From Patescibacteria group bacterium (GTDB lineage: Bacteria > Patescibacteriota > Microgenomatia > Curtissbacterales > GWA2-41-24): a DNA stretch of 64,000 nt. The position numbers and the translations under genes were made by a program. The stretch is from NCBI GenBank assembly GCA_038063735.1, contig JBBTUN010000004.1, forward strand, positions 106,646 to 170,645. Direction: 5' to 3'. Each line of letters opens with the position of its first letter. Position 1 is the first letter of the stretch. Below are positions 3,874 to 64,000 of this stretch, piece after piece. The notes under the pieces were generated by a model. The model searched no databases. It saw nothing but the letters and a program-made list of their open reading frames with translations, and was not told the DNA's origin.

Positions 3874-3876
3874 TAA

Positions 3877-5655: not shown

Positions 5656-5664
5656 AATTAACTT

Positions 5665-20880: not shown

Positions 20881-20936
20881 TACACTTATTATATAGCACA
20901 AAACATTGCGAAAAAGGTTGCCAGGGAAGCTAAAAA

Positions 20937-45434: not shown

Positions 45435-45436
45435 AA

Positions 45437-47208: not shown

Positions 47209-47246
47209 ATCGACGACATTGTAATTAATTGTTTAGTCAAATACAA

Positions 47247-47960: not shown

Positions 47961-49244
47961 TTATTCTTCAATATCTTTGCTCTTCAATATTCTAGGGATG
48001 GGAAGAGGAATTATAAAATCACCTCGGAAACCATTTTTTTTAATTTTAGGAGCCAACTCATCTGCAATATGCCATGATAAAAGAAGTGCATAATCCGGTT
48101 GGTCGCTATAAAGCCTATCTTCATCAAGAACGGGAATTACAGTACCAGGGACGTACTTACCAATCTTATGTGAACCTTTTATTTCTAAAACACAATCCAA
48201 AATACCATCATCAATTCCAACGTAATTTATTAGTGTACTGGCTCGTGACGGGGCCCCGATTCCATAAATAACCTTATTTTGTATTTTTAATTTTTCCAAA
48301 AGGGACATGATCTTAAGTTTTGATAAAGTCACTTCTTTTTGGAATCTAATTAAATTTGCTTTATTAGTAACCGCAGCTTTCTCTTTCTTAAGCATATCCC
48401 CAACACTCTTCCCAATTTTTCGAGTGTCTTTCTTGGCAGCGTATACTCTGATTGAGCCACCGTGAGACGGAATGTTTTTTGCATGAAATACCTCAAGCCC
48501 ATGCATAGCAAGGAGATACTTTAAACTGTGGAGTGAATAATATCTCATATGTTCATGATAAATAGTATCATATTGTAAAGTTTTAATTAACGAATAAAGA
48601 TAATGAGACTCAGATATAAATACACCGCCTGGTTTTATGAGTCGAATAATATTTTTCAAAGCTTCATGAATATTTTCCATATGTGCAAAAACATTTGTGG
48701 CAGTGACGACTGTCGCTTTTCCTCTAGTTTTGATAATTTTATCAACAACTTTTGCAGTAAAATAATCTATTATAGTATCAATCCCTTTTTTAACCGCGAG
48801 TTTCCCAATTTCTTCGGGTGTTACCCCGAGAACTTTATGCTCATTAACAAAGTTAGAAAGAAGATTTCCATCATTTGATCCAATGTCTACAATCAAATCC
48901 TCACTTTTAAGTGATAGTAATTTTGAAGATTCGCGATATAATTCCTCAAAATTTTCTCTTAAAACCCTCGTGGTGCTACTCGTGTAAGGGTATTCTGGAG
49001 GGAATAAAATTTTTGGATCAACGATAAGTCCAAGCTGGACTAGATGACATTTTCGACAGTACAACCATTGAGCAGGGTAGCTGGGTTCCTCAGACGGTCT
49101 AGTGCCAATCTTTGGCATCGTGTTGACAGGGGGCAAGTATCCTAGAAAAAGGATAGAGGATAGTTTAGGGTTTTCACATATTTGACATTTTTTTACCACC
49201 ACGCTGGAACCGGTACCAAAAGCAAAGGAAGAATTCTTAGTCAT
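47961..49244 (-). CDS. Putative sugar C-methyltransferase (Zn-ribbon Methyltransf_13 N-domain + SAM MTase, TylCIII/NovU-like)
   Basis: CQIC…CRKC zinc ribbon, a DIGSNDGNLL SAM motif and a C-terminal Methyltransf_14-like region. Confidence 0.55.
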   Translation of the reverse strand: MTKNSSFAFGTGSSVVVKKCQICENPKLSSILFLGYLPPVNTMPKIGTRPSEEPSYPAQWLYCRKCHLVQLGLIVDPKILFPPEYPYTSSTTRVLRENFEELYRESSKLLSLKSEDLIVDIGSNDGNLLSNFVNEHKVLGVTPEEIGKLAVKKGIDTIIDYFTAKVVDKIIKTRGKATVVTATNVFAHMENIHEALKNIIRLIKPGGVFISESHYLYSLIKTLQYDTIYHEHMRYYSLHSLKYLLAMHGLEVFHAKNIPSHGGSIRVYAAKKDTRKIGKSVGDMLKKEKAAVTNKANLIRFQKEVTLSKLKIMSLLEKLKIQNKVIYGIGAPSRASTLINYVGIDDGILDCVLEIKGSHKIGKYVPGTVIPVLDEDRLYSDQPDYALLLSWHIADELAPKIKKNGFRGDFIIPLPIPRILKSKDIEE

Positions 49245-49271
49245 TAGATAATATTCGCTTCTCCATACATC

Positions 49272-49322
49272 ATTTATTCTAAATTATATTCACTTCGCTT
49301 ATGTAATTTATTCTAAATTATA
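49272..49322. repeat. 17-bp perfect direct repeat ATTTATTCTAAATTATA, two copies at 49272-49288 and 49306-49322
   Basis: Seen directly in the sequence. The second copy overlaps the stop codon of 49313-50302. Confidence 0.8.
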
Positions 49323-50302
49323 AGGGCAGGGGGTTTTAAATGAGCGTTATTATTATACCAATCGGCAGTAATTTGTAAACCTTCGTAAAAACTAAATTTC
49401 GGCTGATAGCCAAGTTTTCTAATCTTCGAAATATCTGGAAGACGTCGATTAGTACCGCCTTTTTGTATCTTTCCGGGAATTATTTTTATTTTTTGTCCAA
49501 AAAAATCCGCCACCCCCTGTGCCACCTCATTAATAGCAATTTCCTGATCCGTGCCGATGTTATATATCTCTAAATGTTTGCCATGCTTAATTATAGTTTC
49601 CAGCCCTTTCACAAAATCATCAATGTACACAAATGCTCTCGTCTCCTTGCCGGAACCCTGAATATGAAATTTTACAAGTCCATGATCCTTTTTAGATAAC
49701 TCTCTCATTCTGATAACGAATTGTGGGATTACATGTTCCCACCCCATCTCTGGGCCGAATACATTATGGGGACGGAAAATCATTGCACGTCTAAAATATT
49801 TTCTACCATAATTCGCGACAAAAAGTTCACTTATTATTTTCCCTCCCCCGTAAGAATAGCGGGGGTTTAACAAATCAGGAACAATTAAACGAACATTTTC
49901 CGGCGTCGGCACAACTGGGGGAGTTTGATAAACTTCAGAACTTGAAGCGAAATAAATTTCATCTACACCGTTCCATAAACATGAATCAATTACATTAATA
50001 ATTCCACGCGTGGACACATCTAATACAACTTCTGGCATCGAATAAAAAAACTTAGTGCCGTTTACAGCGGCAAGATGAATTACTCCATCAACACCCTTGC
50101 ATGCGATATTGACAATTTTTGGATCCCTAACGTCGCCGGAAATAAATTCAAAATCATTTACGATATCCTTTAAGCTCTCTAAATTACCTCTCGAATTGTT
50201 ATCTAAAACTCTGGTAGTATAGCCGTTTCTTACCATAGCCCTCGTGACATTCCTACCGATAAACCCGGTGCCTCCAGTCACTAAATATTTTTTTGCAAAC
50301 AT
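49313..50302 (-). CDS. NAD-dependent epimerase/dehydratase (SDR). First gene of the minus-strand nonulosonic-acid operon.
   Basis: VTGGTGFIGRNV motif and YSYGGGK. Confidence 0.7.
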   Translation of the reverse strand: MFAKKYLVTGGTGFIGRNVTRAMVRNGYTTRVLDNNSRGNLESLKDIVNDFEFISGDVRDPKIVNIACKGVDGVIHLAAVNGTKFFYSMPEVVLDVSTRGIINVIDSCLWNGVDEIYFASSSEVYQTPPVVPTPENVRLIVPDLLNPRYSYGGGKIISELFVANYGRKYFRRAMIFRPHNVFGPEMGWEHVIPQFVIRMRELSKKDHGLVKFHIQGSGKETRAFVYIDDFVKGLETIIKHGKHLEIYNIGTDQEIAINEVAQGVADFFGQKIKIIPGKIQKGGTNRRLPDISKIRKLGYQPKFSFYEGLQITADWYNNNAHLKPPALII

Positions 50303-50323
50303 TTTGCTTATCGGCAGTCTTTC

Positions 50324-51241
50324 ATGTATATTCTATGCGATATGTCAAGGCAAAAAATACTCGTTTACGGAATTACAGGGATGACAGGCACAAGATTTGC
50401 CGAACTGGTCAGAGATAAATTTAAAATTATTGGCCCTCCTCGTTTCATTGTCGACCTCACAAATAAGAAACAAGTGAAAAAAAATATCCGAGATGTTAGT
50501 CCAGATCAGATACTTTATTTAGCAGGAATCACTAAAGTAGATGAGGCACAGCAAAATCCTAAAAACGCATATTTACTTAATTCGGAAGCTGTAAAATATG
50601 CTGCGAAAGAGTCAGCTCTCCTAAACATCCCTTTTCATTATGTTTCTACTGATGCTGTGTTTGACGGCAAACTAAAAAACAGACTGTATAAAGAAAATGA
50701 TAAAACTAATCCGATTTCCATTTATGGTAAAAGTAAATTAGCTGGGGAAAAAGTTGTATTAGAATTTTCAAATAAGAATTCTGTCATCAGGACAATAATG
50801 ATATATTCTCCAAATTATCCGCATAAAAAAGATTTTGCCAAGTTTGCTTACGAATCACTAAAATACAAAAAACCAATAACTGGAATAATCGATCAATTTA
50901 TAAATCCAACCTATGTGGACGATTTGGTAAATGGCATCTGCAAAATATTGCAAAAAAGAGAAAGTGGCATTTACCATGTTGCAGCAACAGACAGTACCAC
51001 TAACTTTGAATTTCTAAAAAAAATAGAGAAAACTTTCAAATTCAATAAAAATCTTATTACAGAAACAACATTTAATGAATTTTTCAAAGATAAAACCGCG
51101 CCTAGACAGCAATACAGTAGACTTTCAACCGAAAAATTTAGAAAAAAATTTGGAAACGGAATCCTTCACAAAATAGATCAAGGAATCAATGAATTTAAAA
51201 AACAGATGTCAAAACTAGAAACGCAACCTATTGACGTTTAG
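50324..51241 (+). CDS. RmlD-like NAD(P)H sugar reductase (dTDP-4-dehydrorhamnose reductase family). The start is possibly the ATG at 50342.
   Basis: ILVYGITGMTG motif, a VSTDAVFDG signature and YGKSK. Confidence 0.6.
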   Translation: MYILCDMSRQKILVYGITGMTGTRFAELVRDKFKIIGPPRFIVDLTNKKQVKKNIRDVSPDQILYLAGITKVDEAQQNPKNAYLLNSEAVKYAAKESALLNIPFHYVSTDAVFDGKLKNRLYKENDKTNPISIYGKSKLAGEKVVLEFSNKNSVIRTIMIYSPNYPHKKDFAKFAYESLKYKKPITGIIDQFINPTYVDDLVNGICKILQKRESGIYHVAATDSTTNFEFLKKIEKTFKFNKNLITETTFNEFFKDKTAPRQQYSRLSTEKFRKKFGNGILHKIDQGINEFKKQMSKLETQPIDV

Positions 51242-51994
51242 TCTCACTAAGATCCCGTATAAATACCATCGTACATACTTGGGCAGCCACTTCAATAGTT
51301 TAAATTTAGATTTTCCCACTGTTCTATCTCTCCAAACTGTTGGCACATCTCCGATTTTAAAACCGGCATGATACGCTTTTATTATTATCTCGCAAGAGTA
51401 TTCCCAGCCACCTGTTGACTCGATTTTTATCTTGTCGAAAATATTTCTTTTATACATCTTAAAACCGTTTGATATATCTGTTGTTGGAATTCCCAGTAGA
51501 AAAGGACTAAGCTGGCCAGCAAATCTGGAAAGCAAAGTTTTTAAAAAACCTCCACCAATCTTTTTACCACCTTTTCCATATCTGGATGCACATACAATAT
51601 CAAAGCCATCCTCCATTTTCGTGTACATCTTATTCACTGTTTTCGGTTCATCAGCTAAATCCGCAGGCATGATCACAACCACTTTCCCTTTTGCATTCTT
51701 AATTCCGGTTTTAACTGCGTTTATCACCCCTTTTCCAAAATTGTTTTTCACCAAAATTACGCTTTTAAATTTGCGTTGAAGTTTTCTTGCATATGGAATA
51801 GTATTATCTTCATCAAAATCATAAACGATTAAGATTTCATGAGGGTTTATTACATCTTTTTCTAAAGCAATTATTTGTGTTGTAATGTTCTCACCTTCGT
51901 TATAAACAGGCAAGACAATACTTAAATCAAAATGCTTATTCGAAGAAAAGCTTTGCTTATTCACTTCCAGCCAAATACTTTCTAAGATAAACAA
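51215..51994 (-). CDS. GT2 polyprenyl-phosphate sugar synthase (DPM1-like)
   Basis: LSIVLPVYNEGENI…VIMPADLAD motifs. Confidence 0.7.
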   Translation of the reverse strand: MFILESIWLEVNKQSFSSNKHFDLSIVLPVYNEGENITTQIIALEKDVINPHEILIVYDFDEDNTIPYARKLQRKFKSVILVKNNFGKGVINAVKTGIKNAKGKVVVIMPADLADEPKTVNKMYTKMEDGFDIVCASRYGKGGKKIGGGFLKTLLSRFAGQLSPFLLGIPTTDISNGFKMYKRNIFDKIKIESTGGWEYSCEIIIKAYHAGFKIGDVPTVWRDRTVGKSKFKLLKWLPKYVRWYLYGILVRLNVNRLRF

Positions 51995-53333
51995 GATAAA
52001 TCAAAACGTGGATAGCAGCCAGTAGTGTCAGAAGCCAGTAATGCAAGAGATTTTCAGGAAATGCGACAAAACCACCCCTGACGGGAAATCCGTGAGTTAA
52101 GACTGGGCTTAAGCCAAAAAATATCAGTATTAAATACAGCCTAATATTACTCTTATTAGTGTTGATTATGGCCAAACATAAAGCGGCTAATATCGTGATG
52201 AATAAGTGGTTCGCGTGCACGCCGGTTCTCAAGATAAAATAACTCCAACTTATCATCAAGCTCGCCTGCAACAAACTGCCAACGTCTTTCTTTTTTATTA
52301 AGAAACTCTTCAAGATTGCTATATCAACTAACAGAAAAATCACTCCAGTAATTAATGAAAAAATATGGAGATTATTTTTAATAACCATTACGTACGTCTC
52401 TGGGTAAAATGGTATAAGGACACCATATTGAATAAGATACACGAAATTTAAAGACCCTATTTCAAAATACCAAACGCCATGACTGAAAGCTTTTCTTAAG
52501 GATTCAGCTAAAGAAAATAAAGATAAATGATTTACCAAAAAAACAATAATTAACAAGACAAATACTGACGTAAAGGCCACCAAGAATTTGAATATTGGCA
52601 TGTCAATTTTATATTCGCTCGCAGAATGCCCTAGGCTATTAATCCACGGATGAATGCGAGAGAATACATACTTTCGAGGACTGCTGTGTATTTTTGCTCG
52701 CTCATGTAAACTTAAAGAATAATACCGATGACTTTCAGTCTTCGGAAGTTTATACCGCTGCCCATTTTTTATTATGAAATAAAACAGAAACACTGGTAGC
52801 ATCATAATAGCAATCCATTTCACCAATACCGCCAAAGCAAAACAAATTCCGGAAGGAAGATACTTCCGTCGAGCGAATAAGGCCAAAGAGAAAATTACAT
52901 ATGGCGCAAAGGTAATATCTAAAGTGGTGAATGCCTGCGAAATAATGGCAAAATACAATCCCCCCAAATAAAGTCCAGAGACAACAGCAATGCTTGTCCA
53001 AATTGATTTTCGCCTCAAAATAGTAGATAAGTAAATTAAAGAAACCCATGTTGCTAAATAATAGACCAGCAACATTAGTTTTATCCCTATCATCCAGCTG
53101 ACGCCAAAAACTGCAGCTGCTTTCATTGCAAGCCAGAGATTAATGAAAGCGAAAGGCGGGTAATCAGTAGTCCAATAATTGTAGTTGGCATTAATACTGT
53201 TACTAATAATAGTGTCACTAACACTGGTATTGATAATAGAATAAGCATTCAGGGGACCCCATCTATCAATATGAGCTGTCCATTCCAGCCAAACGTCCAT
53301 ATTCCCCAGTACCATAATTTGGGAAAAAGACAA
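51957..53333 (-). CDS. Polytopic membrane protein (GT-C-like). The N-terminus is probably incomplete or frameshifted; see the 53266-53448 ORF.
   Basis: At least 11 TM segments. The annotated start is TTG, and the nearest ATG is at 53315. An upstream out-of-frame ORF encodes a TM helix. Confidence 0.4.
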   Translation of the reverse strand: MSFSQIMVLGNMDVWLEWTAHIDRWGPLNAYSIINTSVSDTIISNSINANYNYWTTDYPPFAFINLWLAMKAAAVFGVSWMIGIKLMLLVYYLATWVSLIYLSTILRRKSIWTSIAVVSGLYLGGLYFAIISQAFTTLDITFAPYVIFSLALFARRKYLPSGICFALAVLVKWIAIMMLPVFLFYFIIKNGQRYKLPKTESHRYYSLSLHERAKIHSSPRKYVFSRIHPWINSLGHSASEYKIDMPIFKFLVAFTSVFVLLIIVFLVNHLSLFSLAESLRKAFSHGVWYFEIGSLNFVYLIQYGVLIPFYPETYVMVIKNNLHIFSLITGVIFLLVDIAILKSFLIKKKDVGSLLQASLMISWSYFILRTGVHANHLFITILAALCLAIINTNKSNIRLYLILIFFGLSPVLTHGFPVRGGFVAFPENLLHYWLLTLLAAIHVLIYLVYLRKYLAGSE

Positions 53334-54410: not shown

Positions 54411-56090
54411 ATGAATTTTTCTAAAAGGATACCTTTCGTATTTATTATTTCGACACTTTTTGTTAGTTTTGCCTTAAGGTTTTATGCATTAGGTCAAGTG
54501 CCGAATGGTTTGTCGCCAGATGAAGTTGATGTCGGCTACAACGCTTTTTCTATAATCAAAACTCACAAAGATGTCTACGGGAGAGCCTTCCCGCTATTTT
54601 TCCAATCACTTGACGACTATAAAGCTGGGCTTCCGATATACCTTTCGGTAATCGGTATAAAATTGTTTGGATTATCAGATTATTCAATAAGAGCGATCCC
54701 GGCACTTTTTGGCGCACTTACCCCGATTCTATTTTTCTTTTTTGCCAAATTGCTTTATCCAGAGAAGAAAAAATTTCCTTTTGTCATAATGATTTTAGCC
54801 ACATTTGAACCTTGGGGTATAGCAATTTCAAGAGCCATGATTTTTTACTCGGAATATGTCTTTTTGTGTTTACTAGTTTTAATTACATTTTTAATAGGTA
54901 TGAAAAAAAATATGAAGAATGTTTTATATGTCTCAGGAGCACTTTTGGGCCTTACGCCTTACGTTTATTATTCGTCATTTATTTATATGCCGCTTCTCTT
55001 TGTAGCAGTAAGTTTAATTTATAAGGATTTTATATTTAAAAATTTAAAGACTTGCACTATTAGCTTATTGTTTGTTCTTGTTGTTTCTTTTCCGGCCATA
55101 TCTCTTTACTTAAATCCTCAAAACAGAAACCGTTTTAACGCAATTTCTCTCTTTAATCCAGATACCACTTTGACGCTTTCCATAAAAGAGCAGACGAGCG
55201 ACATTGAAGAAAAGTTACCTTTTTCCGGCTATGTTCATAATCGCAGAATTATTTATGCAAGCGCATTCCTTGATAATTACTTCGATTACTTCAATTTAGA
55301 TTATCTTTTTGTTAATGCAAAAAACATACGTTATTTTTATACAAACTATGTCGGTCTTTTTTACCTTTTTGCTATACCCTTCTTTTTGTTTGGTCTATTT
55401 AAAATAATCACAAGAAGGAAAAAAGATGACTTATTCATTTTAGCTTTAATTATAATCGGACCTATTTCAGCAGCTGTCACACTTGGCTCACCCTTTCCCC
55501 ATCGTGGACTGCTTTTTTTGATAGGAGTTCAAGTCGTTTGTGCGCTTGGACTAACTGCTTTTTTTGATAATTTCTTAAAAAGAAAGCAATGGCAATATAA
55601 AGCCGCAATCATTCTTATAATTTTTGCTTATTTTTTAAATGTGTACTTTTTCATTCACCAATACTTTATTCATTCACCACAAGAATTTAACGCTGAAAGT
55701 AATAACGGAGCTTGGTTTGCAACTGTTAGGGACGTTATGCCATTTGTAAGAAAGAATAAATCCAATTACGAAACTATCATATTTTCGTGGTCTTACAGAA
55801 AATTAGTCCCGGGAGTTTATTACGCATTTTATAACAAGACATCACCTTTTGTTTTTCAATCCAAGTCTGCTCTTTGGACTAACGAACCACCATCATATAG
55901 GCAAATATACGATAAGATCGAAAACATTGAATTCAGACCAATAGATTGGGAAAACGACAAAAGCAGAATTAAAACACTTTTGATCGGATACCCGGAAGAG
56001 TTTCCTCCTGACGTAAAAAATGTGGTTAACAAAACATACTTACCCAATGGTCAAATACATCTCCTTTTTGTTGAAGTGAAAAAAGACTAG
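54411..56090 (+). CDS. GT-C family glycosyltransferase (PMT/ArnT-like)
   Basis: LSPDEVDVGYNAFSIIKTHKDVYGRAFPLFF loop-1 motif, highly similar to the 2191/5665 paralogs. Confidence 0.65.
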   Translation: MNFSKRIPFVFIISTLFVSFALRFYALGQVPNGLSPDEVDVGYNAFSIIKTHKDVYGRAFPLFFQSLDDYKAGLPIYLSVIGIKLFGLSDYSIRAIPALFGALTPILFFFFAKLLYPEKKKFPFVIMILATFEPWGIAISRAMIFYSEYVFLCLLVLITFLIGMKKNMKNVLYVSGALLGLTPYVYYSSFIYMPLLFVAVSLIYKDFIFKNLKTCTISLLFVLVVSFPAISLYLNPQNRNRFNAISLFNPDTTLTLSIKEQTSDIEEKLPFSGYVHNRRIIYASAFLDNYFDYFNLDYLFVNAKNIRYFYTNYVGLFYLFAIPFFLFGLFKIITRRKKDDLFILALIIIGPISAAVTLGSPFPHRGLLFLIGVQVVCALGLTAFFDNFLKRKQWQYKAAIILIIFAYFLNVYFFIHQYFIHSPQEFNAESNNGAWFATVRDVMPFVRKNKSNYETIIFSWSYRKLVPGVYYAFYNKTSPFVFQSKSALWTNEPPSYRQIYDKIENIEFRPIDWENDKSRIKTLLIGYPEEFPPDVKNVVNKTYLPNGQIHLLFVEVKKD

Positions 56091-56091
56091 A

Positions 56092-57768
56092 TCAGTCTAT
56101 TACCCCCAGTACATCAATATAGGGACCTGGTCTTATGAGTCTAAAATATGGGAATATTGCTGTTGTGTCAAAAAGAGCCTCGGGGATATCGGTATCGTAG
56201 ATCTTGCTCCCAGTAGGACTAAAATGTGCAACCAGCCTGTAACGTTTCGGATCAAGCTCTAATAATCTGTCCGAAGATGAATTGTAATTGTCAATAACAA
56301 TTCTTGAGTTGCTTATTAACAAAGCTTTATTTGTATAATTTACCTTGCTATCGCCTGCTGTAGAAATTGCGTTAGCATACATTATATCTCTAACGTTGTC
56401 GGCATATGTATTCCCACTAAGTTTTGCAGCTCTTCCATAATATCCCGGGTTCATCTCCTGCACTTTTTTTATAACAAGCGCATTCGGAACATACCCATAA
56501 TACCTGTGAGACGTAGCTACGAGCGGGGTGCTCTTTTCTATATTCTGGTCCAACCATTGTCTTATAAGATCATAGGTCGATGTTTGAACAAGAACCAAGT
56601 TAAAATAAACAGAATTAAAAAAAGTTAAAATCATAACAATCACAAAAAACAAGTGTCTATATCTGACTCGTAGTACAAATTCATAAAAAACATATCCGGC
56701 CAACACTGGTAAAAAACAAAAAGAAATCAATAAATAGCGACTAAGGGGGGGAAAAAAAAGAACCCATATTAAAATATTTATAACAAAAAAAAGTATAAAA
56801 GCCCGATGTATCCCGTGCTTTTTGTATTTTGTAAGTGCAAAAATCACAAAAAAAAGAATGATAATTGGATCTGTAAAAAAAACATTAAGAATCGACTTGC
56901 CAGCGTTTAAAAAAGAATTTAGGTCCGTTATATTTAACTTAACCAATTCAACGCTGTCCGACCGGTTTGTCGGATCCAAAATTCGAAATACTTTTGACCC
57001 TAAACTAACTAAATTTAGAACGAATACAATCATGGTATAAAAAGTTAGCCCGGCAAGTAATCCTCTAATATATTTTTTAATTTTAAGTTCAGAAAAAAAA
57101 ATGATTAGGCAAATAAGTAATGCGCTCATCGCCCCAAACTGATGGAAACCAAAGGAAACAGCGCTAAAAAAAAATGAAACTAACACATACTTTGGGAACT
57201 TGTTTTTGGTTTTTACGGCTTTTACTGCCCAGTAAACAGCAACTATTGAGAAGAAAACTGCTTCTGACCAAGGTCTTGCTTGATGTGAAATTAAGACAAG
57301 ATTATATGAGGCAGCTGTAAGTAGAGAGCTAAATAATGCGACTTCCTTTTTATAAAACAGTAGTCTAGCAAGTTTATAACTAACCAATATTGCCAAAACA
57401 CCAAATAATGCCGAAATAACCCTAGGTATAAATAGAAAATATCCTTCGTGAGTTACTATCAGAAATTCTAAATCAGAAATAGAATGAATCTTGCCAGTGA
57501 TAAATAAAACAAATGATGCAAGAGCTATGAATGGAATTTGAAGATAGGCACCTAAAGGACCGTAGTTTCCTAAGGTAAATAGTGTTTTGCTAGCAAGCAT
57601 ATTAAGAGCGCTAAGGTGGTAAACAGCTTCATCACCCGAAGCATATAATATTGGAAAACCAATAGTTAAATTAATTGTTCTTAACAATAAACCAATTGCA
57701 ATGATAAAAAGAAGCAAATATTTATCTGGAATATTGGTAACAATACTCTTCAAACTTTGAAACAACAT
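56092..57768 (-). CDS. GT-C family glycosyltransferase (ArnT/PMT-like). Contains a G7A8 homopolymeric tract.
   Basis: ILYASGDEAVYHLSALNML loop-1 DE motif. About 12 TM segments and a roughly 170-aa C-terminal soluble domain. Confidence 0.6.
   Translation of the reverse strand: MLFQSLKSIVTNIPDKYLLLFIIAIGLLLRTINLTIGFPILYASGDEAVYHLSALNMLASKTLFTLGNYGPLGAYLQIPFIALASFVLFITGKIHSISDLEFLIVTHEGYFLFIPRVISALFGVLAILVSYKLARLLFYKKEVALFSSLLTAASYNLVLISHQARPWSEAVFFSIVAVYWAVKAVKTKNKFPKYVLVSFFFSAVSFGFHQFGAMSALLICLIIFFSELKIKKYIRGLLAGLTFYTMIVFVLNLVSLGSKVFRILDPTNRSDSVELVKLNITDLNSFLNAGKSILNVFFTDPIIILFFVIFALTKYKKHGIHRAFILFFVINILIWVLFFPPLSRYLLISFCFLPVLAGYVFYEFVLRVRYRHLFFVIVMILTFFNSVYFNLVLVQTSTYDLIRQWLDQNIEKSTPLVATSHRYYGYVPNALVIKKVQEMNPGYYGRAAKLSGNTYADNVRDIMYANAISTAGDSKVNYTNKALLISNSRIVIDNYNSSSDRLLELDPKRYRLVAHFSPTGSKIYDTDIPEALFDTTAIFPYFRLIRPGPYIDVLGVID
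56745..56759. repeat. Homopolymeric tract GGGGGGGAAAAAAAA (G7 then A8) inside the CDS 56092-57768. It encodes FFPP on the minus strand.
   Basis: Seen directly. It is the longest G/C run in the 64-kb window, and the genome is about 30% GC. Confidence 0.8.
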
Positions 57769-59023
57769 ATTTTAATTCAACTTTTCCGATTCCAGGATAA
57801 ACGCCCATCCAAAAACCATTGCTCATAATCTTATCACTAAATTTTAGATTTCCAACCACCCTATGTTTTATTTTGCAATATGCTGGATGACGCAATAAAT
57901 TTCCTGCAAAAAGACTTCTAGTTTCTATTTTGTTACTTTGCAAATAATTAACTATCGCTAGCCTATTAAATGGTGCGTTGTCTCGAATCGCCAACATAAA
58001 TCCAAACCAACATGGATCAGATTTAATATCCCACTTCGGCAGAACAAAAAAGTTATCAAATTTCTTAAGTTCCTCGTATAGAAACTGGTGGTTTTCTTGT
58101 CTTGCTTTGATAAAACCGGGGAGCTTATCAAGCTGTGCGACTCCTATTGCAGCCTGAATGTCTGTAGCCTTTAAATTAAATCCAATATGTGAATATGTAT
58201 ACTTATGGTCATATCCATAAGGTAACTTGCCAAGTTTGAAAGAAAACCGTCTACCACACCTGTTATCCTGACCTGTCCTGCACCAGCAGTCTCGTCCCCA
58301 CTCGCAAAAGGAATTTACAAGAACATGTAAATCGGGGTTACTGGTAACAACAGCTCCGCCTTCCCCCATTGTTATTTGATGGGCAGGGTAAAAGGAAAAA
58401 GTGCCTATGTCCCCAAACGTAGATACATAACGGCCGGCAAACTTTGAACCCAATGCGTCACAGCAATCTTCAATAAGCCAGAGTCCGTGCTTCTTGGCAA
58501 TTTTAGCTACTTTCTCAGCGTCAAATGGATTCCCGAGGGTATGGGCAAGTATTATAGCCTTCGTTTTGTTTGTGATCGCTTTTTCGATCATTTCAACTTC
58601 AGCGTTTCTTGTTTCAAGGTTAACGTCAACAAAAACAGGTACAGCGCCAAATTGAATGATTGGGTTTACTGTTGTAGGGAAAGAGCAAGCTGCCGTGATA
58701 ACCTCGTCCCCGGGTAAAATTCTCCTTTTGCCAAGTTTTGGAGAAGTCAACGCATAAAAAGCGGCTAAGTTGGCGCTTGAACCGGAATTTGTTATAGTCA
58801 CTAACTTTACGCCCAAAAAATTTCCTAATTTTTTGCAAAACTCTTCAGCATAATGACCTTCAGTTAACCAAAATTCCAATGATGCCTCGACAGCCTTTTC
58901 AATTTCATTATGATCAAAGACACGTCCTGCAACTTTTACAGGAGTGACCCTAGGAATAAATATCTGTTTTTTATGATTTTCGGTATAATACCTACGAATA
59001 AATGCCTGAAGCTGTTTGTCCAT
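57722..59023 (-). CDS. CDP-4-keto-6-deoxyhexose 3-dehydrase (E1; RfbH/DdhC/AscC family of the DegT superfamily)
   Basis: The N-terminus resembles RfbH (…ASLEFWLTEGHYAEEF…NSGSSANL). The exact E1 [2Fe-2S] spacing C-X57-C-X1-C-X7-C is present: DCC…(57)…CWCRTGQDNRC. Confidence 0.7.
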   Translation of the reverse strand: MDKQLQAFIRRYYTENHKKQIFIPRVTPVKVAGRVFDHNEIEKAVEASLEFWLTEGHYAEEFCKKLGNFLGVKLVTITNSGSSANLAAFYALTSPKLGKRRILPGDEVITAACSFPTTVNPIIQFGAVPVFVDVNLETRNAEVEMIEKAITNKTKAIILAHTLGNPFDAEKVAKIAKKHGLWLIEDCCDALGSKFAGRYVSTFGDIGTFSFYPAHQITMGEGGAVVTSNPDLHVLVNSFCEWGRDCWCRTGQDNRCGRRFSFKLGKLPYGYDHKYTYSHIGFNLKATDIQAAIGVAQLDKLPGFIKARQENHQFLYEELKKFDNFFVLPKWDIKSDPCWFGFMLAIRDNAPFNRLAIVNYLQSNKIETRSLFAGNLLRHPAYCKIKHRVVGNLKFSDKIMSNGFWMGVYPGIGKVELKYVVSKFEEYCYQYSR

Positions 59024-59064
59024 ACGCTATATATTAGCTGCCAAACAAAAACAAGTAAATATTA

Positions 59065-59997
59065 ATGAAAAAAATAAGTATTGTTACCCCCCTCTTTAAC
59101 GAAGAAGAAAATGTCAAAGAGCTTTATAAACAAATAAGCGATTTGATGGCAAAAGAAAAAAACTATCAATTCGAAATTATAGCGGTTGAACACGGTTCAA
59201 GCGATTCTACGTTCAAAATCTTAAAATCCATACGCAAAAAAGATCCAAGGCTGAAAATTATTCAACTTTCTAGAAATTTCGGTAATGTTGATGCAGCAAT
59301 TAGCGCCGGACTCAATTTTTCAAGCGGGGATGCAGCTGTGATTTTAATGGGAGACCTACAAGAACCACCCGCACTCATTTCGAGTTTCTTAAGAAAGTGG
59401 GAAGAAGGTTACGAGATTGTATACGGAACGATTAAAAAAAGAGCAGATAATTCACTTATTCGTAAATTTAACTCCCTACTGTTCTATAAAATATTAAGGT
59501 TTGCAACCGGAAAAATGTTTCCTGAAAATGCGTCAGATTATAGGCTTGTCGATAAAAAAGTATACGAGGTGATAAATAGCATGGGGGAAAGAAACAAATT
59601 CCTTAAAGGACTAACATTCTGGACTGGCTTTACTCAAATTGGTATCCCATACAATAGATCGCCGAGATTTGCTGGCGAGTCTAAAGCAGATTTCATTACT
59701 GTGCTTAAGGTAGCCGTAAATGGGATATTATCATTTTCCTACATACCGCTAAGGCTAGTGACAATATTGGGGTTTGTACTTGCAATAGCTTCTTTCTTCA
59801 TACTGTCTTTAGAAATCATTTTATTTTTAGCCTTGGGTAGAGAAGCAAAAGGAGTTCTAACAATTGTAGTTTTAATTAGCTTTTTGTTTGGCATGTTATT
59901 TGTGATCCTTGGTGTTATTGGAGAATATATTGCCAGAATTTACGACGAAGTTAAGCAAAGACCAATTTATATAGTCAAGAAAAAAATTGGTATCTAA
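59065..59997 (+). CDS. GT2 polyprenyl-phosphate sugar synthase with C-terminal TM helices (ArnC/GtrB-like)
   Basis: SIVTPLFNEEENV…IIAVEHGSSDST…DLQEPP motifs. Two hydrophobic helices at the C-terminus. Confidence 0.7.
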   Translation: MKKISIVTPLFNEEENVKELYKQISDLMAKEKNYQFEIIAVEHGSSDSTFKILKSIRKKDPRLKIIQLSRNFGNVDAAISAGLNFSSGDAAVILMGDLQEPPALISSFLRKWEEGYEIVYGTIKKRADNSLIRKFNSLLFYKILRFATGKMFPENASDYRLVDKKVYEVINSMGERNKFLKGLTFWTGFTQIGIPYNRSPRFAGESKADFITVLKVAVNGILSFSYIPLRLVTILGFVLAIASFFILSLEIILFLALGREAKGVLTIVVLISFLFGMLFVILGVIGEYIARIYDEVKQRPIYIVKKKIGI

Positions 59998-60635
59998 GAA
60001 GACAAGTGCCCAATGTTCACCATTCTGACATAGGATCTATCGGCAACACCATTAGCACTTTTAGGAAGCTTCACCCACTTAACATCTCCGTTTACAACTG
60101 TCTCCATAAGAGGTATTTTCCTCACAGTTTTAAATCCGCAACGTTTATAAAGATTCACTGCTCTTACATTATCATTAAATGTTATTAAATAGAGCCTGTC
60201 TATATTTAAATTTTTAAAACCCCAACTGACTAAGGTGGTAACACATGTAGTCATCAGCCCAGGAATATTTTTTAAACCTCTCACGACATTATCTAACTCG
60301 CATGAGTTATCCCTTCGTCTGTACCTATAAAAACCTAGATGCCCATAAAACCTACCGTACTCATCCTCAATTGCGAACAAAATCCTGTCCTGATTATCAA
60401 TGACTAAATCCTTTAACCATTTTTTTGTCCTTTTGACAGTAACTTTAAACGTGTCACCAAACCAGAAAGCCTCCCTCCTTCTCCACAAAGCTATATTCTT
60501 TATAAGAATTTTATTTTCAACATCTGCATTGTTTATTACGCGAAGAAAAATTATTATTGAGTGAATTTTGCCAACTTTAATAACAAATTTAGGCCTCTTC
60601 TTCAGAGCGTTTATTTTACTTGAATAATGAGACAT
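59994..60635 (-). CDS. GNAT-family N-acetyltransferase-like protein
   Basis: 213 aa. The C-terminal NVRAVNLYKRCGFK is a GNAT motif A/B-like region. Confidence 0.5.
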   Translation of the reverse strand: MSHYSSKINALKKRPKFVIKVGKIHSIIIFLRVINNADVENKILIKNIALWRRREAFWFGDTFKVTVKRTKKWLKDLVIDNQDRILFAIEDEYGRFYGHLGFYRYRRRDNSCELDNVVRGLKNIPGLMTTCVTTLVSWGFKNLNIDRLYLITFNDNVRAVNLYKRCGFKTVRKIPLMETVVNGDVKWVKLPKSANGVADRSYVRMVNIGHLSS

Positions 60636-60646
60636 TAATTTAGAGC

Positions 60647-61756
60647 TTATTTAGTTAGCTTGCGGACTAAACAGTCTGAAATATAATTTACTTGTTCTTC
60701 CGTAAGATTCACACCACTTGGAAGATTAATACCATTTAGGCCAAGATGATGGGCGACAGGTGTGTTAATTTCCTTATACATAGGAAACATGCTAACCGGA
60801 TAGAAAAATGGCCTTGTGTCAACGAGCTGTTTAGCCATTGCCCTCATTAATTGATCGCGGGTATATTCAAATTTTTTGTCTAAAACAATAGATGACATCC
60901 ATTTATTTGACCTAGTATTTGTTTTGTCAGGATTCATGGATATTCCTCCTAATTTGCCAAGTTTGCGAGCATACCATTTAAATATTTTATTCTTTCTTCT
61001 GACAAACTCCTCAATACGCTCAATTTGAGCCAGTGCGAGGGCTGCTTGGATATTGGACATGTGATAGCTATATCCCACCCGTATTTGCCAAAATTTTCGC
61101 TTCGGATCTTTTCCATGCTCGTTTAGCATTCTTGCTTTGTCCAAATTCTTTTTGCTATTTGTAACGAGCATCCCACCAATTCCAGAAATAGCTATTTTTG
61201 CCCCCTGAAAGCTATATGCTCCAAAATCTCCGAATGTGCCAGGCTTTTTCCCCTTATATATAGAGCCTAATGCTGGAGCAGCATCCTCAACTACATAAAG
61301 TCCATGCTTTTTCGCTATGTTCATAATCTCATCCATCTCACAAAGATTTCCGTACATGTAAACAGGCATAATAGCTTTAGTACGGCTACTGATAGCCTTT
61401 TTAATTTTATCTGGGTCAATGCACCATGTGTCTGGCAAAACATCTATAAAAATTGGTTTTGCTCCAAGACGCATAACTACATCGGAAGCTGCGTAAAAAG
61501 CTAAATCAGGCAAAATAACTTCATCCCCCGGCTTGATATCCAAGCAGGCAAGTGCAAGTTGCATAGCGCCGGTCGCCCCAGACACAGCCATTACGTATTT
61601 GGAACCAATATAATTTGCAAATTTTCTTTCAAGTTTTTCTTTGTAATCAAACATATGATAATTCCACCCGTTAGTGACTGCATCATTTACATAATTAATT
61701 TCTTTTTGAGTAATAGAAGGGCCAGCCGTTAATATCATCCCGTGTGGTCTATACAT
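60647..61756 (-). CDS. DegT/DnrJ/EryC1/StrS family PLP-dependent sugar aminotransferase
   Basis: 369 aa with family-typical organisation: GDEVILPD…AIMPVYMYG…GGMLVTN. Confidence 0.8.
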   Translation of the reverse strand: MYRPHGMILTAGPSITQKEINYVNDAVTNGWNYHMFDYKEKLERKFANYIGSKYVMAVSGATGAMQLALACLDIKPGDEVILPDLAFYAASDVVMRLGAKPIFIDVLPDTWCIDPDKIKKAISSRTKAIMPVYMYGNLCEMDEIMNIAKKHGLYVVEDAAPALGSIYKGKKPGTFGDFGAYSFQGAKIAISGIGGMLVTNSKKNLDKARMLNEHGKDPKRKFWQIRVGYSYHMSNIQAALALAQIERIEEFVRRKNKIFKWYARKLGKLGGISMNPDKTNTRSNKWMSSIVLDKKFEYTRDQLMRAMAKQLVDTRPFFYPVSMFPMYKEINTPVAHHLGLNGINLPSGVNLTEEQVNYISDCLVRKLTK

Positions 61757-61778
61757 GATAAGTAATAAATGTTACAAG

Positions 61779-63581
61779 CTATAAGTTATTTTCAGCAGTT
61801 GATTTTACAATCATATTGGATTCTAGCTCCTTGGGCAATAGCAAAGGAAAAAGATCCTCATATGGTCTGGATACCATAGAACCGTCCGCCCGTTTCACCG
61901 AATGAATTCTAGGCACAACCAATTGCCAATGCCCTGACCTAACGTCACACAATACTGGGCCAGGATAAGAGAGTACTTGTTTTATCTTTTTGTCGATTTC
62001 TCGAGTGTTGTTAATTCTTATTCCACGAATTCCATAAGAGCTAGCTATTTTCAAAATATCTGGAAACCACAATCCCGTTTTTGGGCTCTCACCCATGAGT
62101 CGACCGGCCATATGTGTTTTTTGAGTATGTCTAATTAGCAAATAGCCATTATTGTTAATGACAAAAATTTTAATAGGCAAATTGTTTTGCTTTACTGTAG
62201 CCAGTTCTTGAATATTCATTTGTAAACAGCCATCCCCCGTTACAACAATCGTTCTTTTACCTCCAGAAGCTATACATGCTCCTACGCTACTTGGCCAGTA
62301 TCCCATTGTTGAAATTCCTCCTGTCGTGATAAACCTTTGACCCTTTTTTAAATTCCACGTTTGGCAAACAACATGAAATGGGGAGCTGGTATCAACAACT
62401 ATGGTGTCACGATCGGATGCAAATTTAGATAACCGTTCTGTAAAGTAATACGAATTTACTAGAGCCTCTCTTTTGTAATGGGGCAAAACCATAGGATATT
62501 TTTTTCTCCAGGAAGCACATACACGAGTCCAATTATCAAAGCCTGGAAGCCTCTTTCTATTGATAGATTTTAGTAGTTTTTCAAGAAATACTTTTACGTC
62601 TTTATTTATTTTAAAGTCGATATTGATACCTGGTTTATTTAATTCGAAAACATCTATGTCGACTACAATTTTTTTTGCATGTCTACCCCAATCCTTAGCA
62701 TCATAACCAATAATACCTGTATCAAGCCTTGTTCCCAGGCAGATAATTAAATCGGCATTTTGAATAGCAAAATTTGCAGCTCGCTCTGGGTATAGTCCCG
62801 GCCTGCCAACAAAAAGTGGGTTAGTGCTTTCAATAAGGTCAATGCCAAGTCTTGTTGTTTCAACTGGAATTTTTAAAGTTGAGACTACTTCTTTAAAAAG
62901 TTTCTCGGCCATTCCTGTTCTAATGCCCTGACCAGCCAAGATAAGTGGTCGGCGTGATTTATAGATTATTTCCAAAACTCTGTTTATCTCCTCACTGGAA
63001 ATTTCAGCTATTTTAGGAAATTTTGGTTCAACAAATTTTTGTAAAAGCTTTTCGGGAACTTCCATCCTTTGAATGTCCAGTGGTACCTCTATCCATACAG
63101 GACCGCGCCTTCCAGACATCGCCCAAAAATAAGCCTCCTCCATGTAATGCTTAACACTTGCAGGGTCATCTATTGTTTTAAAGTACTTGGTTACAGATTT
63201 GGCAATTGGTGCGATGTTAATCCCTTGAAGGCCGAACTGCCTAATTTTTGTTTCCTGCATATAAGAAACCGTAGAGTGTGATGATTGCCCGGAAATGACC
63301 AGCATAGGGGCAGAATCTACATACGCGCCAACAACCCCATTTAAGACATTTATTGCTCCCGGGCCTGCCGTTACCATAGCCACACCCATTTTCCCACTAA
63401 TTCTGCCATATGCTTCAGCCGCCATTCCGGTCGCTTGTTCATGATGATTGAATACAGGTTTAATTTTTTTATTTCGAAAGACCGCATCATTTAAAAACAT
63501 TGCCTGTCCGCCAGTAACCATAAACACAGTGTCAACTCCTCTGCTTTCCAAGAATTTCACAATGTAGTCAGATACAGTCAT
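61779..63581 (-). CDS. Thiamine-diphosphate-dependent enzyme of the acetolactate synthase/YerE family
   Basis: 600 aa. N-terminal TPP_enzyme_N (GVDTVFMVTGGQAM…HHEQATGMAAEAYGR), a central domain and a C-terminal TPP-binding domain (GDGCLQMNIQELAT). Confidence 0.75.
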   Translation of the reverse strand: MTVSDYIVKFLESRGVDTVFMVTGGQAMFLNDAVFRNKKIKPVFNHHEQATGMAAEAYGRISGKMGVAMVTAGPGAINVLNGVVGAYVDSAPMLVISGQSSHSTVSYMQETKIRQFGLQGINIAPIAKSVTKYFKTIDDPASVKHYMEEAYFWAMSGRRGPVWIEVPLDIQRMEVPEKLLQKFVEPKFPKIAEISSEEINRVLEIIYKSRRPLILAGQGIRTGMAEKLFKEVVSTLKIPVETTRLGIDLIESTNPLFVGRPGLYPERAANFAIQNADLIICLGTRLDTGIIGYDAKDWGRHAKKIVVDIDVFELNKPGINIDFKINKDVKVFLEKLLKSINRKRLPGFDNWTRVCASWRKKYPMVLPHYKREALVNSYYFTERLSKFASDRDTIVVDTSSPFHVVCQTWNLKKGQRFITTGGISTMGYWPSSVGACIASGGKRTIVVTGDGCLQMNIQELATVKQNNLPIKIFVINNNGYLLIRHTQKTHMAGRLMGESPKTGLWFPDILKIASSYGIRGIRINNTREIDKKIKQVLSYPGPVLCDVRSGHWQLVVPRIHSVKRADGSMVSRPYEDLFPLLLPKELESNMIVKSTAENNL

Positions 63582-63586
63582 CTAAT

Positions 63587-64000
63587 TTATATTAATGCTT
63601 CAATTGGGTTTTCTCTCTCTATGGCGCTTTTTTTCTGTTTTAGGTTTGCCGCAATATCCACAATTATATCTTCTTGGCCAGCCACTATCTTCCTTCGCCC
63701 CAGTTCAACAAGTATGTCTCGGGCATCCACACCAAATCTTTTCGCAGCCATTCTAGCATGTGGAGCAAATCCACTAAAAACTCCGGCAAGTCCACTCGTA
63801 AGGCTGATGGCACTTATTTCCTGCGGTTTTTTCATAATCTTTGCGGTTATCTTTTCGCTATTGTCCATAAGTTTAAAAAGATCAAGATCTAATTTGTAGC
63901 CCTTCCTCATTAGAACGGCAACGATTACTTCAAGCTGACAATTACCTGCGCCTGCCCCCAACCCCCTAGATGTAGTGTCGATTATCTTAGCACCAGCCTC
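63587..64000 (-). CDS. 4-hydroxy-2-oxovalerate aldolase (DmpG/MhpE/BphI family), C-terminal part. The gene continues beyond the window end.
   Basis: The frame is open to position 64000. It has GLGAGAGNCQLE and DARDILVELGRRKIVAGQEDIIVDIA, matching the DmpG catalytic-domain end and the DmpG_comm domain. Confidence 0.65.
   Translation of the reverse strand, partial: EAGAKIIDTTSRGLGAGAGNCQLEVIVAVLMRKGYKLDLDLFKLMDNSEKITAKIMKKPQEISAISLTSGLAGVFSGFAPHARMAAKRFGVDARDILVELGRRKIVAGQEDIIVDIAANLKQKKSAIERENPIEALI

Follow-up and report, generated by a model that had tools for sequence, protein, structure and literature searches.

The analysed window, a stretch of 64,000 nt from a Patescibacteria group bacterium, carries towards its end a run of genes around an open reading frame (57722-59023) that begins with ATG and is predicted to encode an E1-type (RfbH/DdhC/AscC) sugar 3-dehydrase (Table 1). 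A gene for a membrane glycosyltransferase of the GT-C type starts 47 nt before the RfbH stop, an overlap found unchanged in the relatives' loci L016, L020, L021 and L023. On the other side, 41 bp from the RfbH start and on the opposite strand, lies a GT2 gene that keeps this position in most relatives; its best NCBIfam matches, PgfS (243 bits) and ArnC-type (171.7 bits), both fall under their cutoffs. Beyond it come genes for a GNAT N-acetyltransferase, a second DegT-family protein, an enzyme dependent on thiamine diphosphate (ThDP) and an aldolase, which passes the window end and is represented here by the C-terminal 137 codons and stop of a 347-aa protein. A promoter and terminator scan of 55500-64000 was uninformative, with fewer sites than in shuffled sequences (18 versus 27.6 and 3 versus 6.6, respectively).

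Contig L001 shares 8373 bp with the window at 100% identity and continues past base 64000; the C-terminus of its aldolase equals the fragment in the window. There the operon adds homologs of glucose-1-phosphate cytidylyltransferase and NDP-hexose 4,6-dehydratase, an acylating acetaldehyde dehydrogenase (AcDH; BphJ/ErwJ-like, TIGR03215 362.7 bits against a cutoff of 282.25) and the full 4-hydroxy-2-oxovalerate aldolase.

Table 1 Predicted genes and residues at the RfbH locus. Positions are those of the window unless prefixed with L001.
Feature	Position	Strand	Length or basis
GT-C-type (PMT_2/ArnT-like) membrane glycosyltransferase	56092..57768	(-)	Pfam PMT_2, 29.6 bits
RfbH/DdhC/AscC-type (E1) PMP- and [2Fe-2S]-dependent NDP-4-keto-6-deoxyhexose 3-dehydrase (predicted)	57722..59023	(-)	433 aa
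Cluster and cofactor motif segment of RfbH	58256..58462	(-)	Regular expression and codon check, alignment to E1
C256 codon of RfbH	58256-58258	(-)	
C248 codon of RfbH	58280-58282	(-)	
C246 codon of RfbH	58286-58288	(-)	
H215 codon of RfbH	58379-58381	(-)	
C188 codon of RfbH	58460-58462	(-)	
GT2, polyprenyl-phosphate sugar transferase type (PgfS/ArnC-like)	59065..59997	(+)	Pfam Glycos_transf_2
GNAT N-acetyltransferase (Acetyltransf_3)	59994..60635	(-)	Pfam
Ordinary DegT-family sugar aminotransferase, Lys kept	60647..61756	(-)	Pfam, 356.9 bits
YerE/ErwE-like ThDP-dependent carboligase (predicted)	61779..63581	(-)	600 aa; Pfam TPP_enzyme N, M and C domains
4-hydroxy-2-oxovalerate aldolase (DmpG/BphI/ErwI-like), 3' 414 nt	63587..64000	(-)	Pfam DmpG_comm
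Cytidylyltransferase homolog (RfbF-like)	L001:1764-2513		TIGR02623, 262.6 bits, full length (curated cutoff 300.25)
4,6-dehydratase homolog	L001:2507-3463		dTDP model 172.6, CDP model 159.6, both under cutoff
4-hydroxy-2-oxovalerate aldolase, full gene	L001:4394-5437		TIGR03217, 409.8 bits (cutoff 286)

The product of 57722-59023 scored 663.9 bits against the NCBIfam RfbH equivalog NF011936 (cutoff 423), the next family being PseC with 183.9 (cutoff 423.5), and matched Pfam DegT_DnrJ_EryC1 (PF01041) across residues 39-424 with 308.6 bits, indicating a full-length fold-type-I scaffold. In a phmmer search of the PDB it matched the Yersinia pseudotuberculosis E1 (3bcx) over its full length (E=9.2e-150), with 54% identity over 399 aa by BLASTP. 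Given this E-value and a motif that aligns column for column, the resemblance reflects homology and not chance. An identical protein (100%) from a Patescibacteria MAG at NCBI already bears the name RfbH. The gene product is, as far as its sequence can tell, the E1-type sugar 3-dehydrase that the first-pass annotation had proposed, an ordinary and already automatically annotated textbook enzyme that by itself brings nothing new. The ‘LPS’ label is probably a misnomer, since the host is a Patescibacteria (CPR) bacterium and such bacteria are not known to have LPS.

A regular expression for C-X57-C-X1-C-X7-C matched the RfbH translation once (C188...C246-W-C248-RTGQDNR-C256) and also matched the E1 chain, at residue 193; as a literal string it had no match in a literature text search. 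The spacing first described as DCC-(57 aa)-CWC holds with C188, the latter residue of the CC pair, as its starting point; C187 just before it lacks conservation in distant homologs and is often Asn there. C188, C246, C248 and C256 align to Cys193, Cys251, Cys253 and Cys261 of E1, residues that Agnihotri et al. reportedly assigned in 2004 as its [2Fe-2S] ligands. Being in register with these, the four Cys of RfbH, carried by C188 and a 25-residue loop, are predicted to bind the same type of cluster. E1 Cys257 is replaced by Gln252. At the cofactor site, the alignment to Yersinia E1 bore out the expected His-for-Lys exchange: His215, which sits within FYPAHQITMGEGG, aligns to E1 His220 and takes the place of the Lys that forms the Schiff base within the SF(x)3K motif of ordinary DegT aminotransferases. 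The E1 H220K variant (PDB 3bb8) differs from 3bcx at exactly this column.

These features are shared across the homolog family, the opposite of the retained Lys and unconserved Cys ligands that the first-pass annotation had named as grounds for dropping its assignment. Among close homologs, H215, C246, C248 and C256 are kept in 120 of 120 and C188 in 116 of 120; among distant representatives (37-64% identity), all five residues are kept in about 115 of 150. As a paralog control, the two other DegT proteins of the window have Lys at the His215 position and lack the Cys loop. That the RfbH score misleads and the protein is an ordinary DegT aminotransferase, or that it is a redox-independent 3-dehydratase like ColD (GDP-4-keto-6-deoxymannose 3-dehydratase, PDB 2gms), strikes us as very improbable indeed. 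All of these have the DegT fold, and ColD shares with RfbH the His in place of Lys as well; yet RfbH lacks the aminotransferase Lys, and its match to ColD (E=1.3e-50) is some 100 orders of magnitude weaker than that to E1 (9e-150). ColD, moreover, carries no Fe-S cluster and relies on glutamate to regenerate PMP. According to a review (PMC8987622), it is without the four Fe-S Cys that are present and conserved in RfbH.

The first-pass annotation had placed the CDP-glucose synthase, the dehydratase and the partner E3 reductase outside the window, which is literally true, and had pointed to the flank beyond 64000. Homologs of ddhA and ddhB do lie there, only 1.6-3.3 kb past base 64000 and in the same operon as RfbH. 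Six SDR genes of the window were considered as CDP-glucose 4,6-dehydratase candidates (49313-50302, 50324-51241, 30180-31151, 20937-22013, 17386-18279 and 13131-14030) and none qualified. Co-encoded homologs of cytidylyltransferase and 4,6-dehydratase are a point of likeness to the E1/AscC/DdhC/RfbH systems of Yersinia and Salmonella, whose dehydrases share the His and the Cys spacing described above. The CDP nucleotide itself is not proven, because the cytidylyltransferase homolog stays under its cutoff and the dTDP model fits the dehydratase slightly better than the CDP model does.

An E3-type reductase was not found in the roughly 68 kb of window plus L001: no gene among the window ORFs of at least 90 aa and the L001 genes matched Fer2 (PF00111), FAD_binding_6 (PF00970) or NAD_binding_1 (PF00175) by Pfam. 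Neither window nor L001 contained a plant-type or 4Fe-4S ferredoxin motif, and none of eight relatives' loci had an E3 gene within 10 kb of RfbH. Long RfbH homologs were considered as possible RfbH-E3 fusions, which could have pointed to the electron donor; in 10 of 10 the fusion partner proved to be an SDR domain (RmlD-like or epimerase/dehydratase), and in no case a reductase domain. The locus differs here from classical E1 systems, where E3 (AscD/DdhD/RfbI) is adjacent. It differs from them also in its CPR host and in its setting: theirs is a Wzx/Wzy O-antigen cluster, whereas this RfbH is flanked by a GT2 of the polyprenyl-phosphate type and a GT-C transferase. The missing E3 is a trait of the classical operon and not of the enzyme, for SpnQ, the E1-family TDP-4-keto-2,6-dideoxyglucose 3-dehydrase of Saccharopolyspora spinosa, also lacks a dedicated E3; its reduction is E3-independent, general ferredoxin/flavodoxin reductases being sufficient (PMC8987622). 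With no dedicated E3 nearby, a general ferredoxin or flavodoxin system is the probable electron source here too.

SpnQ, which we compared by its published description, also shares the His and the Cys motif of RfbH (PMC8987622), and the enzyme could resemble it in substrate as well, acting entirely with housekeeping ferredoxin/flavodoxin reductases on another nucleotide sugar (for example a dTDP- or 2-deoxy-4-keto-6-deoxyhexose) and not as a strict DdhC. The absence of E3 here and in the relatives would fit, as would the marginally higher dTDP-glucose score of the 4,6-dehydratase, whose top PDB match is a putative dTDP-glucose dehydratase. Even so, we regard this as improbable: the operon's only nucleotidyltransferase is clearly RfbF-like (PDB 1tzf, E=1.8e-57; other classes at 4e-13 or weaker), the RfbH equivalog cutoff is passed, and neither a 2,3-dehydratase nor a 3-ketoreductase gene of the kind that 2-deoxygenation requires came to light. 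SpnQ itself acts on a dTDP-2,6-dideoxy sugar in a polyketide pathway.

Taking the enzyme as an E1-type dehydrase with a CDP-linked substrate, the cytidylyltransferase and 4,6-dehydratase homologs, first in the operon, would supply CDP-4-keto-6-deoxy-D-glucose. By analogy with the Yersinia enzyme, bound PMP would condense with this sugar at its C4 keto group to a Schiff base, His215 would take the C4' proton and the 3-OH would be expelled; the resulting glucoseen-PMP adduct would be reduced by two one-electron transfers via the [2Fe-2S] cluster, with electrons probably drawn from a general system, as SpnQ has been shown to do, to give CDP-4-keto-3,6-dideoxy-D-glucose.

The fate of that product is suggested by the adjacent ThDP enzyme, which falls under the cutoff of every acetolactate synthase (ALS) model and has as top PDB match 8rph (E=2.1e-115, against 4e-74 for ALS), the YerE-like enzyme JanthE (PMC12188165). 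Its homologs in several phyla adjoin cytidylyltransferase, dehydratase and RfbH genes. Erwiniose is a C4-branched 3,6-dideoxyhexose, made in Pectobacterium atrosepticum by a cluster of ErwE, ErwF, ErwI and ErwJ with ddh genes (Steitz et al. 2022, PMC9306805). The present operon follows the same gene logic, with cytidylyltransferase, 4,6-dehydratase, E1 dehydrase, BphJ-like AcDH, BphI-like aldolase and YerE-like ThDP enzyme; the likeness is one of gene content, ErwE having been compared by description. The ThDP enzyme most likely consumes the dehydrase product, and would add to it a C4 unit from 4-hydroxy-2-oxovalerate, made by the co-encoded AcDH and aldolase, to yield an erwiniose-type branched sugar. 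Joined to an E1-type 3-dehydrase and a CDP substrate supplied by the operon, this is in our judgement a highly probable explanation of the locus. The GT2 could then load the sugar on polyprenyl phosphate and the GT-C transfer it to a cell-surface acceptor; what the operon makes is, most likely, a 3,6-dideoxy sugar with a carbon branch, destined for the cell surface. The CDP-dideoxyhexose branch read from RfbH in the first-pass annotation is supported, in a refined form: a YerE-like ThDP enzyme, the 3' end of an aldolase and an aminotransferase with GNAT as neighbours favour a ThDP-branched (erwiniose/yersiniose-type) and/or aminated derivative over plain abequose, tyvelose or paratose.

Two differences from the erwiniose cluster stand out, namely the missing E3 and the aminotransferase with GNAT found here in place of the ErwF-like reductase. 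Such a reductase, an SDR of about 300 aa, follows the ThDP gene in the relatives' loci L016, L019, L021, L022, L023 and L025; window and L001 hold no ortholog, the best match being 27% identical to generic SDRs. Close CPR relatives L019, L021 and L022, in which an AcDH-aldolase-ThDP module 62-73% identical to this one adjoins RfbH, have the reductase version of the erwiniose-type cluster, unlike the present locus. The GNAT has only weak PDB matches, to spermidine acetyltransferases, and its pairing with the aminotransferase recurs in L020, L023, L024, L025 and L026. The two could either act on the branched sugar or serve to produce another one, a 4-acetamido sugar. Across the relatives' loci, the comparison shows a constant GT2-RfbH-GT-C core surrounded by exchangeable cassettes with predicted tailoring roles (reductase, aminotransferase with GNAT, or split transketolase).

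The aminotransferase bears on whether any branch is made at all. Its nearest structures are C4 aminotransferases, led by GDP-perosamine synthase (3bn1, E=1.2e-82). It would draw on the same 4-keto group as the ThDP enzyme, in competition with it. RfbH, aminotransferase and GNAT might then produce an unbranched 4-acetamido-3,4,6-trideoxyhexose, with AcDH, aldolase and ThDP enzyme serving a second sugar or turning 4-hydroxy-2-oxovalerate, by decarboxylation and CoA-acylating oxidation, into a 3-hydroxybutyryl donor. The contiguous order of cytidylyltransferase, dehydratase, aminotransferase and N-acyltransferase in L020, L026 and L027 resembles the classical 4-acylamido-sugar pathway, and L023 and L025 hold both a reductase and GT2 module and an aminotransferase, GNAT and GT2 module, as would suit the making of two distinct sugars. 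We consider this quite possible but lean against it: all seven loci having this aminotransferase also carry a ThDP enzyme, either ALS-like or a split transketolase; the YerE clade of ALS-like enzymes consists of carboligases (PMC9306805, PMC12247030); and the AcDH-aldolase-ThDP genes remain intact without the reductase both here and in L024, which speaks for a joint function with the genes that are there.

If the aminotransferase and GNAT instead act on the branched sugar, the ErwE-like enzyme would attach a C4 branch of the 3-hydroxybutyryl type at C4, and transamination and N-acetylation of the branch ketone would replace ErwF-type reduction. The product would be an undescribed amino-branched sugar, 4-C-(1-acetamido-3-hydroxybutyl)-3,6-dideoxyhexose, made by an E1 without dedicated E3 and borne on the surface by way of GT2, polyprenyl phosphate and GT-C; we put this forward tentatively, as an unlikely outcome. 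The number of GT2 genes per tailoring module was considered as an argument for aminotransferase action on the branch ketone and rejected as weak, because the island has many other GT2 genes and because of the contiguous gene order in L020, L026 and L027.

CPR/Patescibacteria have minimal metabolism and their surface glycans are little known, and the modest value of this locus lies in its gene context, which places genes predicted for a rare radical-type PMP/[2Fe-2S] deoxygenation, together with those for the recently described ThDP-dependent branching of sugars, in this group. The consistent absence of E3 offers a concrete test of the electron donor for E1-type enzymes in such reduced genomes, and the amino-branched sugar, if true, would stand on the surface of an ultrasmall bacterium without LPS.

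The first-pass annotation had read the 433-aa RfbH protein as an E1-type sugar 3-dehydrase with an exact C-X57-C-X1-C-X7-C [2Fe-2S] motif. The motif is indeed present: a regular expression matched the translation once, at C188, C246, C248 and C256, with the 57-residue spacer counted from the latter Cys of 'DCC', while His215 lies within FYPAHQITMGEGG. The protein scored 663.9 bits against the RfbH equivalog NF011936 in NCBIfam (cutoff 423), the second-best family, PseC, reaching 183.9 bits and falling below its cutoff of 423.5; the Pfam domain DegT_DnrJ_EryC1 spans its full length. Among all PDB sequences, its top matches were the Yersinia pseudotuberculosis 3-dehydrase E1, as wild type (3bcx, E = 9.2e-150) and H220K variant (3bb8, E = 1.6e-148), with ColD far weaker (E = 1.3e-50), and the sole column at which 3bcx and 3bb8 differ is that aligned with His215. 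Identity with E1 was 54% over 399 residues (BLASTP); His215 and the four Cys align with His220 and Cys193, Cys251, Cys253 and Cys261 of E1, which the same regular expression matches at residue 193. E1 Cys257 is replaced by Gln252, as in 115 of 120 close homologs, which fits the position of Cys257 outside the motif.

Conservation was assessed in a close set of 120 sequences (119 homologs at 60–100% identity, plus E1) and in the best 150 matches (37–64% identity) from an HMMER search run exhaustively over 1.84 billion cluster representatives. His215, Cys246, Cys248 and Cys256 were invariant in the close set, where Cys188 was kept in 116 and Cys187 in 118 sequences. About 115 of the 150 distant matches retained C188, H215, C246, C248 and C256 together, those lacking the full set being mostly fragments or intein-split proteins; position 187 was frequently Asn. 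Two DegT paralogs in the window (the operon aminotransferase and 42276–43418) carry Lys at the His215 column and Ala for Cys188, and are without the 25-residue Cys loop. The predicted His-for-Lys substitution at the cofactor site was thus confirmed against E1 His220 and these paralogs, and neither homolog set showed a conserved Lys or a general loss of the Cys ligands. Family match, PDB relatives, aligned residues and conservation all agree with the 3-dehydrase interpretation, which was correct.

Inteins split many RfbH homologs exactly at functional residues (...HN before the junction, C after it), immediately before the first Cys ligand, C188 (P0106, P0130, P0141, P0151, P0198), before the CxC pair at C246 (P0138, P0140, P0145) or right behind the catalytic His215 motif (P0126, P0171). 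Precomputed Pfam results include Hint and intein domains in P0106, and Intein_splicing and LAGLIDADG domains in a relative's locus, L026, with a split homolog at L026:14630–17326.

Features of the RfbH operon and membrane glycosyltransferase genes, in window coordinates
Feature	Position	Strand	Remarks
RfbH ORF	57722–59023	−	433 aa; ATG start
Codon C188	58460–58462	−	
Codon H215	58379–58381	−	
Codon C246	58286–58288	−	
Codon C248	58280–58282	−	
Codon C256	58256–58258	−	
Cytidylyltransferase homolog	equivalent of 66511–67260 (contig L001)		TIGR02623, 262.6 bits full length, just below cutoff 300.25
NDP-hexose 4,6-dehydratase homolog	contig L001		dTDP model 172.6 bits, CDP model 159.6 bits; both under cutoff
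Acylating acetaldehyde dehydrogenase (AcDH)	contig L001		362.7 bits (cutoff 282.25)
4-Hydroxy-2-oxovalerate aldolase	3′ 414 nt at 63587–64000, rest on L001		409.8 bits (cutoff 286)
ThDP enzyme	61779–63581		600 aa
DegT aminotransferase	60647–61756		
GNAT	59994–60635		
GT2, PgfS/ArnC-like	59065–59997		orientation opposite to operon
GT-C/PMT_2 transferase	56092–57768		shares 47 nt with RfbH; convergent pair with 54411–56090
GT-C/PMT_2 gene	54411–56090		convergent pair with 56092–57768
GT-C/PMT_2 genes, four in tandem	680–7251		
GT-C/PMT_2 gene	7274–8812		
GT-C/PMT_2 gene	37279–38787		

Pfam searches of every ORF ≥90 aa showed the whole 64-kb window to be a glycan-synthesis island, in which no sugar-1-phosphate nucleotidylyltransferase was found save a CMP-nonulosonate synthetase-type gene. 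The exact RfbH protein is present on six public contigs. Over an 8373-bp overlap, contig L001 matches the window at 100% identity, and it reaches about 5 kb beyond base 64000 (window = 69024 − L001). There, the cytidylyltransferase and 4,6-dehydratase homologs sought outside the window were found, but an E3 (ascD) homolog was not; against the PDB the former matched 1tzf (E = 1.8e-57; following match 4e-13). In the direction of transcription the order is cytidylyltransferase, dehydratase, AcDH, aldolase, ThDP enzyme, aminotransferase, GNAT, GT2 (opposite strand), RfbH and GT-C. RmlC/RmlD-like genes also occur at 19385–20952, the first nucleotidylyltransferase gene being the cytidylyltransferase homolog. 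The 47-nt overlap between the rfbH 3′ end and the GT-C start (57722–57768) is kept in L016, L020, L021 and L023 (only 74–81% identical), which suggests translational coupling of the pair.

The operon shares its gene logic (AcDH, aldolase, ThDP enzyme, E1) with the erwiniose cluster of Pectobacterium atrosepticum, in which acetaldehyde dehydrogenase ErwJ and aldolase ErwI produce 4-hydroxy-2-oxopentanoate, ThDP enzyme ErwE joins this to the E1 product, CDP-4-keto-3,6-dideoxyglucose, and ErwF reduces the branch ketone (Steitz et al., PMC9306805). The closest solved relative of the ThDP enzyme was 8rph (E = 2.1e-115, versus 4e-74 for acetolactate synthase, an identity rejected with scores below every cutoff for that enzyme); 8rph is JanthE, a YerE-like carboligase (PMC12188165). 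The nearest relatives of the window's ThDP enzyme (58–74% identity) adjoin the same dehydrogenase/aldolase pair. In MAGs of Oscillospiraceae, Lachnospiraceae, Bdellovibrionales, Legionellaceae and Thiotrichales, its homologs neighbour genes for a cytidylyltransferase, a dehydratase and an RfbH-like protein. A second, diverged YerE-like paralog (39–46% identity) shares the locus in two relatives (L004:8787–10553, L021:8107–9888), which hints at two distinct branch donors there.

The sequence itself shows that RfbH has the E1 scaffold with its His and four Cys, and which partners its operon encodes. If it works as the Yersinia enzyme does, the 4-keto group would condense with PMP to a Schiff base, His would take the C4′ proton with expulsion of the 3-OH, and the glucoseen-PMP intermediate would be reduced by two single electrons via the [2Fe-2S] cluster (PMC8987622). 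By the same analogy, the product would be CDP-4-keto-3,6-dideoxyglucose. The flanking genes suggest that the PgfS/ArnC-like GT2 and the GT-C would pass the finished sugar first to polyprenyl phosphate and from there to an acceptor outside the cytoplasm.

Neither the window (ORFs ≥90 aa) nor L001 showed a protein with a Fer2, FAD_binding_6 or NAD_binding_1 domain, and no Cys motif of a ferredoxin was found in them, so the claim that the window holds no E3, the dedicated ferredoxin/FNR-like reductase partner of E1, stands. Such proteins and motifs were also absent from the 10 kb around RfbH in the eight related loci of Patescibacteria. In the loci inspected outside the candidate phyla radiation (CPR), the surroundings of RfbH held neither a Cys motif of the ferredoxin type nor an ORF that was obviously of the E3 type. 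Long RfbH homologs proved to be SDR fusions (RmlD-like 4-reductase or epimerase/dehydratase, at either terminus: P0121, P0122, P0125, P0128, P0129, P0132, P0133, P0134, P0137, P0147), none with an E3-type reductase. This absence, though notable, is not unprecedented, because SpnQ, an E1-family enzyme, likewise has no dedicated E3 and works with ferredoxin or flavodoxin reductases of general function (PMC8987622).

Loci L019, L021 and L022 (RfbH 75–79% identity) encode a cytidylyltransferase, dehydratase, AcDH, aldolase, ThDP enzyme, ~300-aa SDR, GT2, RfbH and GT-C, with module proteins 62–73% identical to those of the window operon. No ortholog of this SDR was found in the window or on L001 (best match 27% identity), and its slot is occupied here by the aminotransferase and GNAT. 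L024 has the same arrangement as the window; L023 and L025 hold both tailoring modules, with a GT2 after each; in L020 and L026 a split transketolase accompanies the aminotransferase and GNAT, and L027 has a split transketolase together with the aminotransferase and an N-formyltransferase. The role of aminotransferase and GNAT can be read in two ways. Their substrate may be the branch ketone that the ThDP enzyme leaves behind: a ThDP enzyme occurs in all seven loci carrying this aminotransferase, and two diverged genomes keep the ThDP module intact although its reductase is missing. Or the C4 keto group may be their target, the product then being a separate 4-acetamido sugar; this is suggested by the four genes lying contiguously in the same order in L020, L026 and L027 and by the C4-aminotransferase ancestry of the enzyme (best solved relative GDP-perosamine synthase, E = 1.2e-82). 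The pathway variant around RfbH is speculative and testable.

Membrane glycosyltransferase genes of the GT-C/PMT_2 type number at least eight in the window, which is unusually dense for a single island. A nonulosonic-acid cluster (40491–47954, −) comprises a CBS-domain SDR, hexapeptide acyltransferase, PseC/LegC-like aminotransferase, UDP-GlcNAc 2-epimerase, formyltransferase, PIG-L deacetylase, NeuB (326.6 bits, under the cutoff of 399.65) and CMP-sugar synthetase, the formyltransferase and deacetylase hinting at an N-formyl variant. The adjacent block at 47961–51241 (sugar C-methyltransferase with Methyltransf_13/14, SDR, RmlD-like reductase) recurs in L016, L022 and L024 and probably forms a C-methyl deoxysugar module of its own. 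Four ORFs of 175–567 aa had no Pfam match at E ≤ 0.001: 51957–53333 (−), 35922–37298 (+), 26190–27893 (+) and 156–683 (+).

The identical protein is named 'MAG: lipopolysaccharide biosynthesis protein RfbH [Patescibacteria group bacterium]' in NCBI, with the same annotation on near relatives in Candidatus Curtissbacteria, and our literature search found no paper tying erwiniose or yersiniose to Patescibacteria. At the enzyme level RfbH is ordinary; only two aspects are mildly new, namely the cassette swap, in which aminotransferase and GNAT replace the reductase, and the CPR host.
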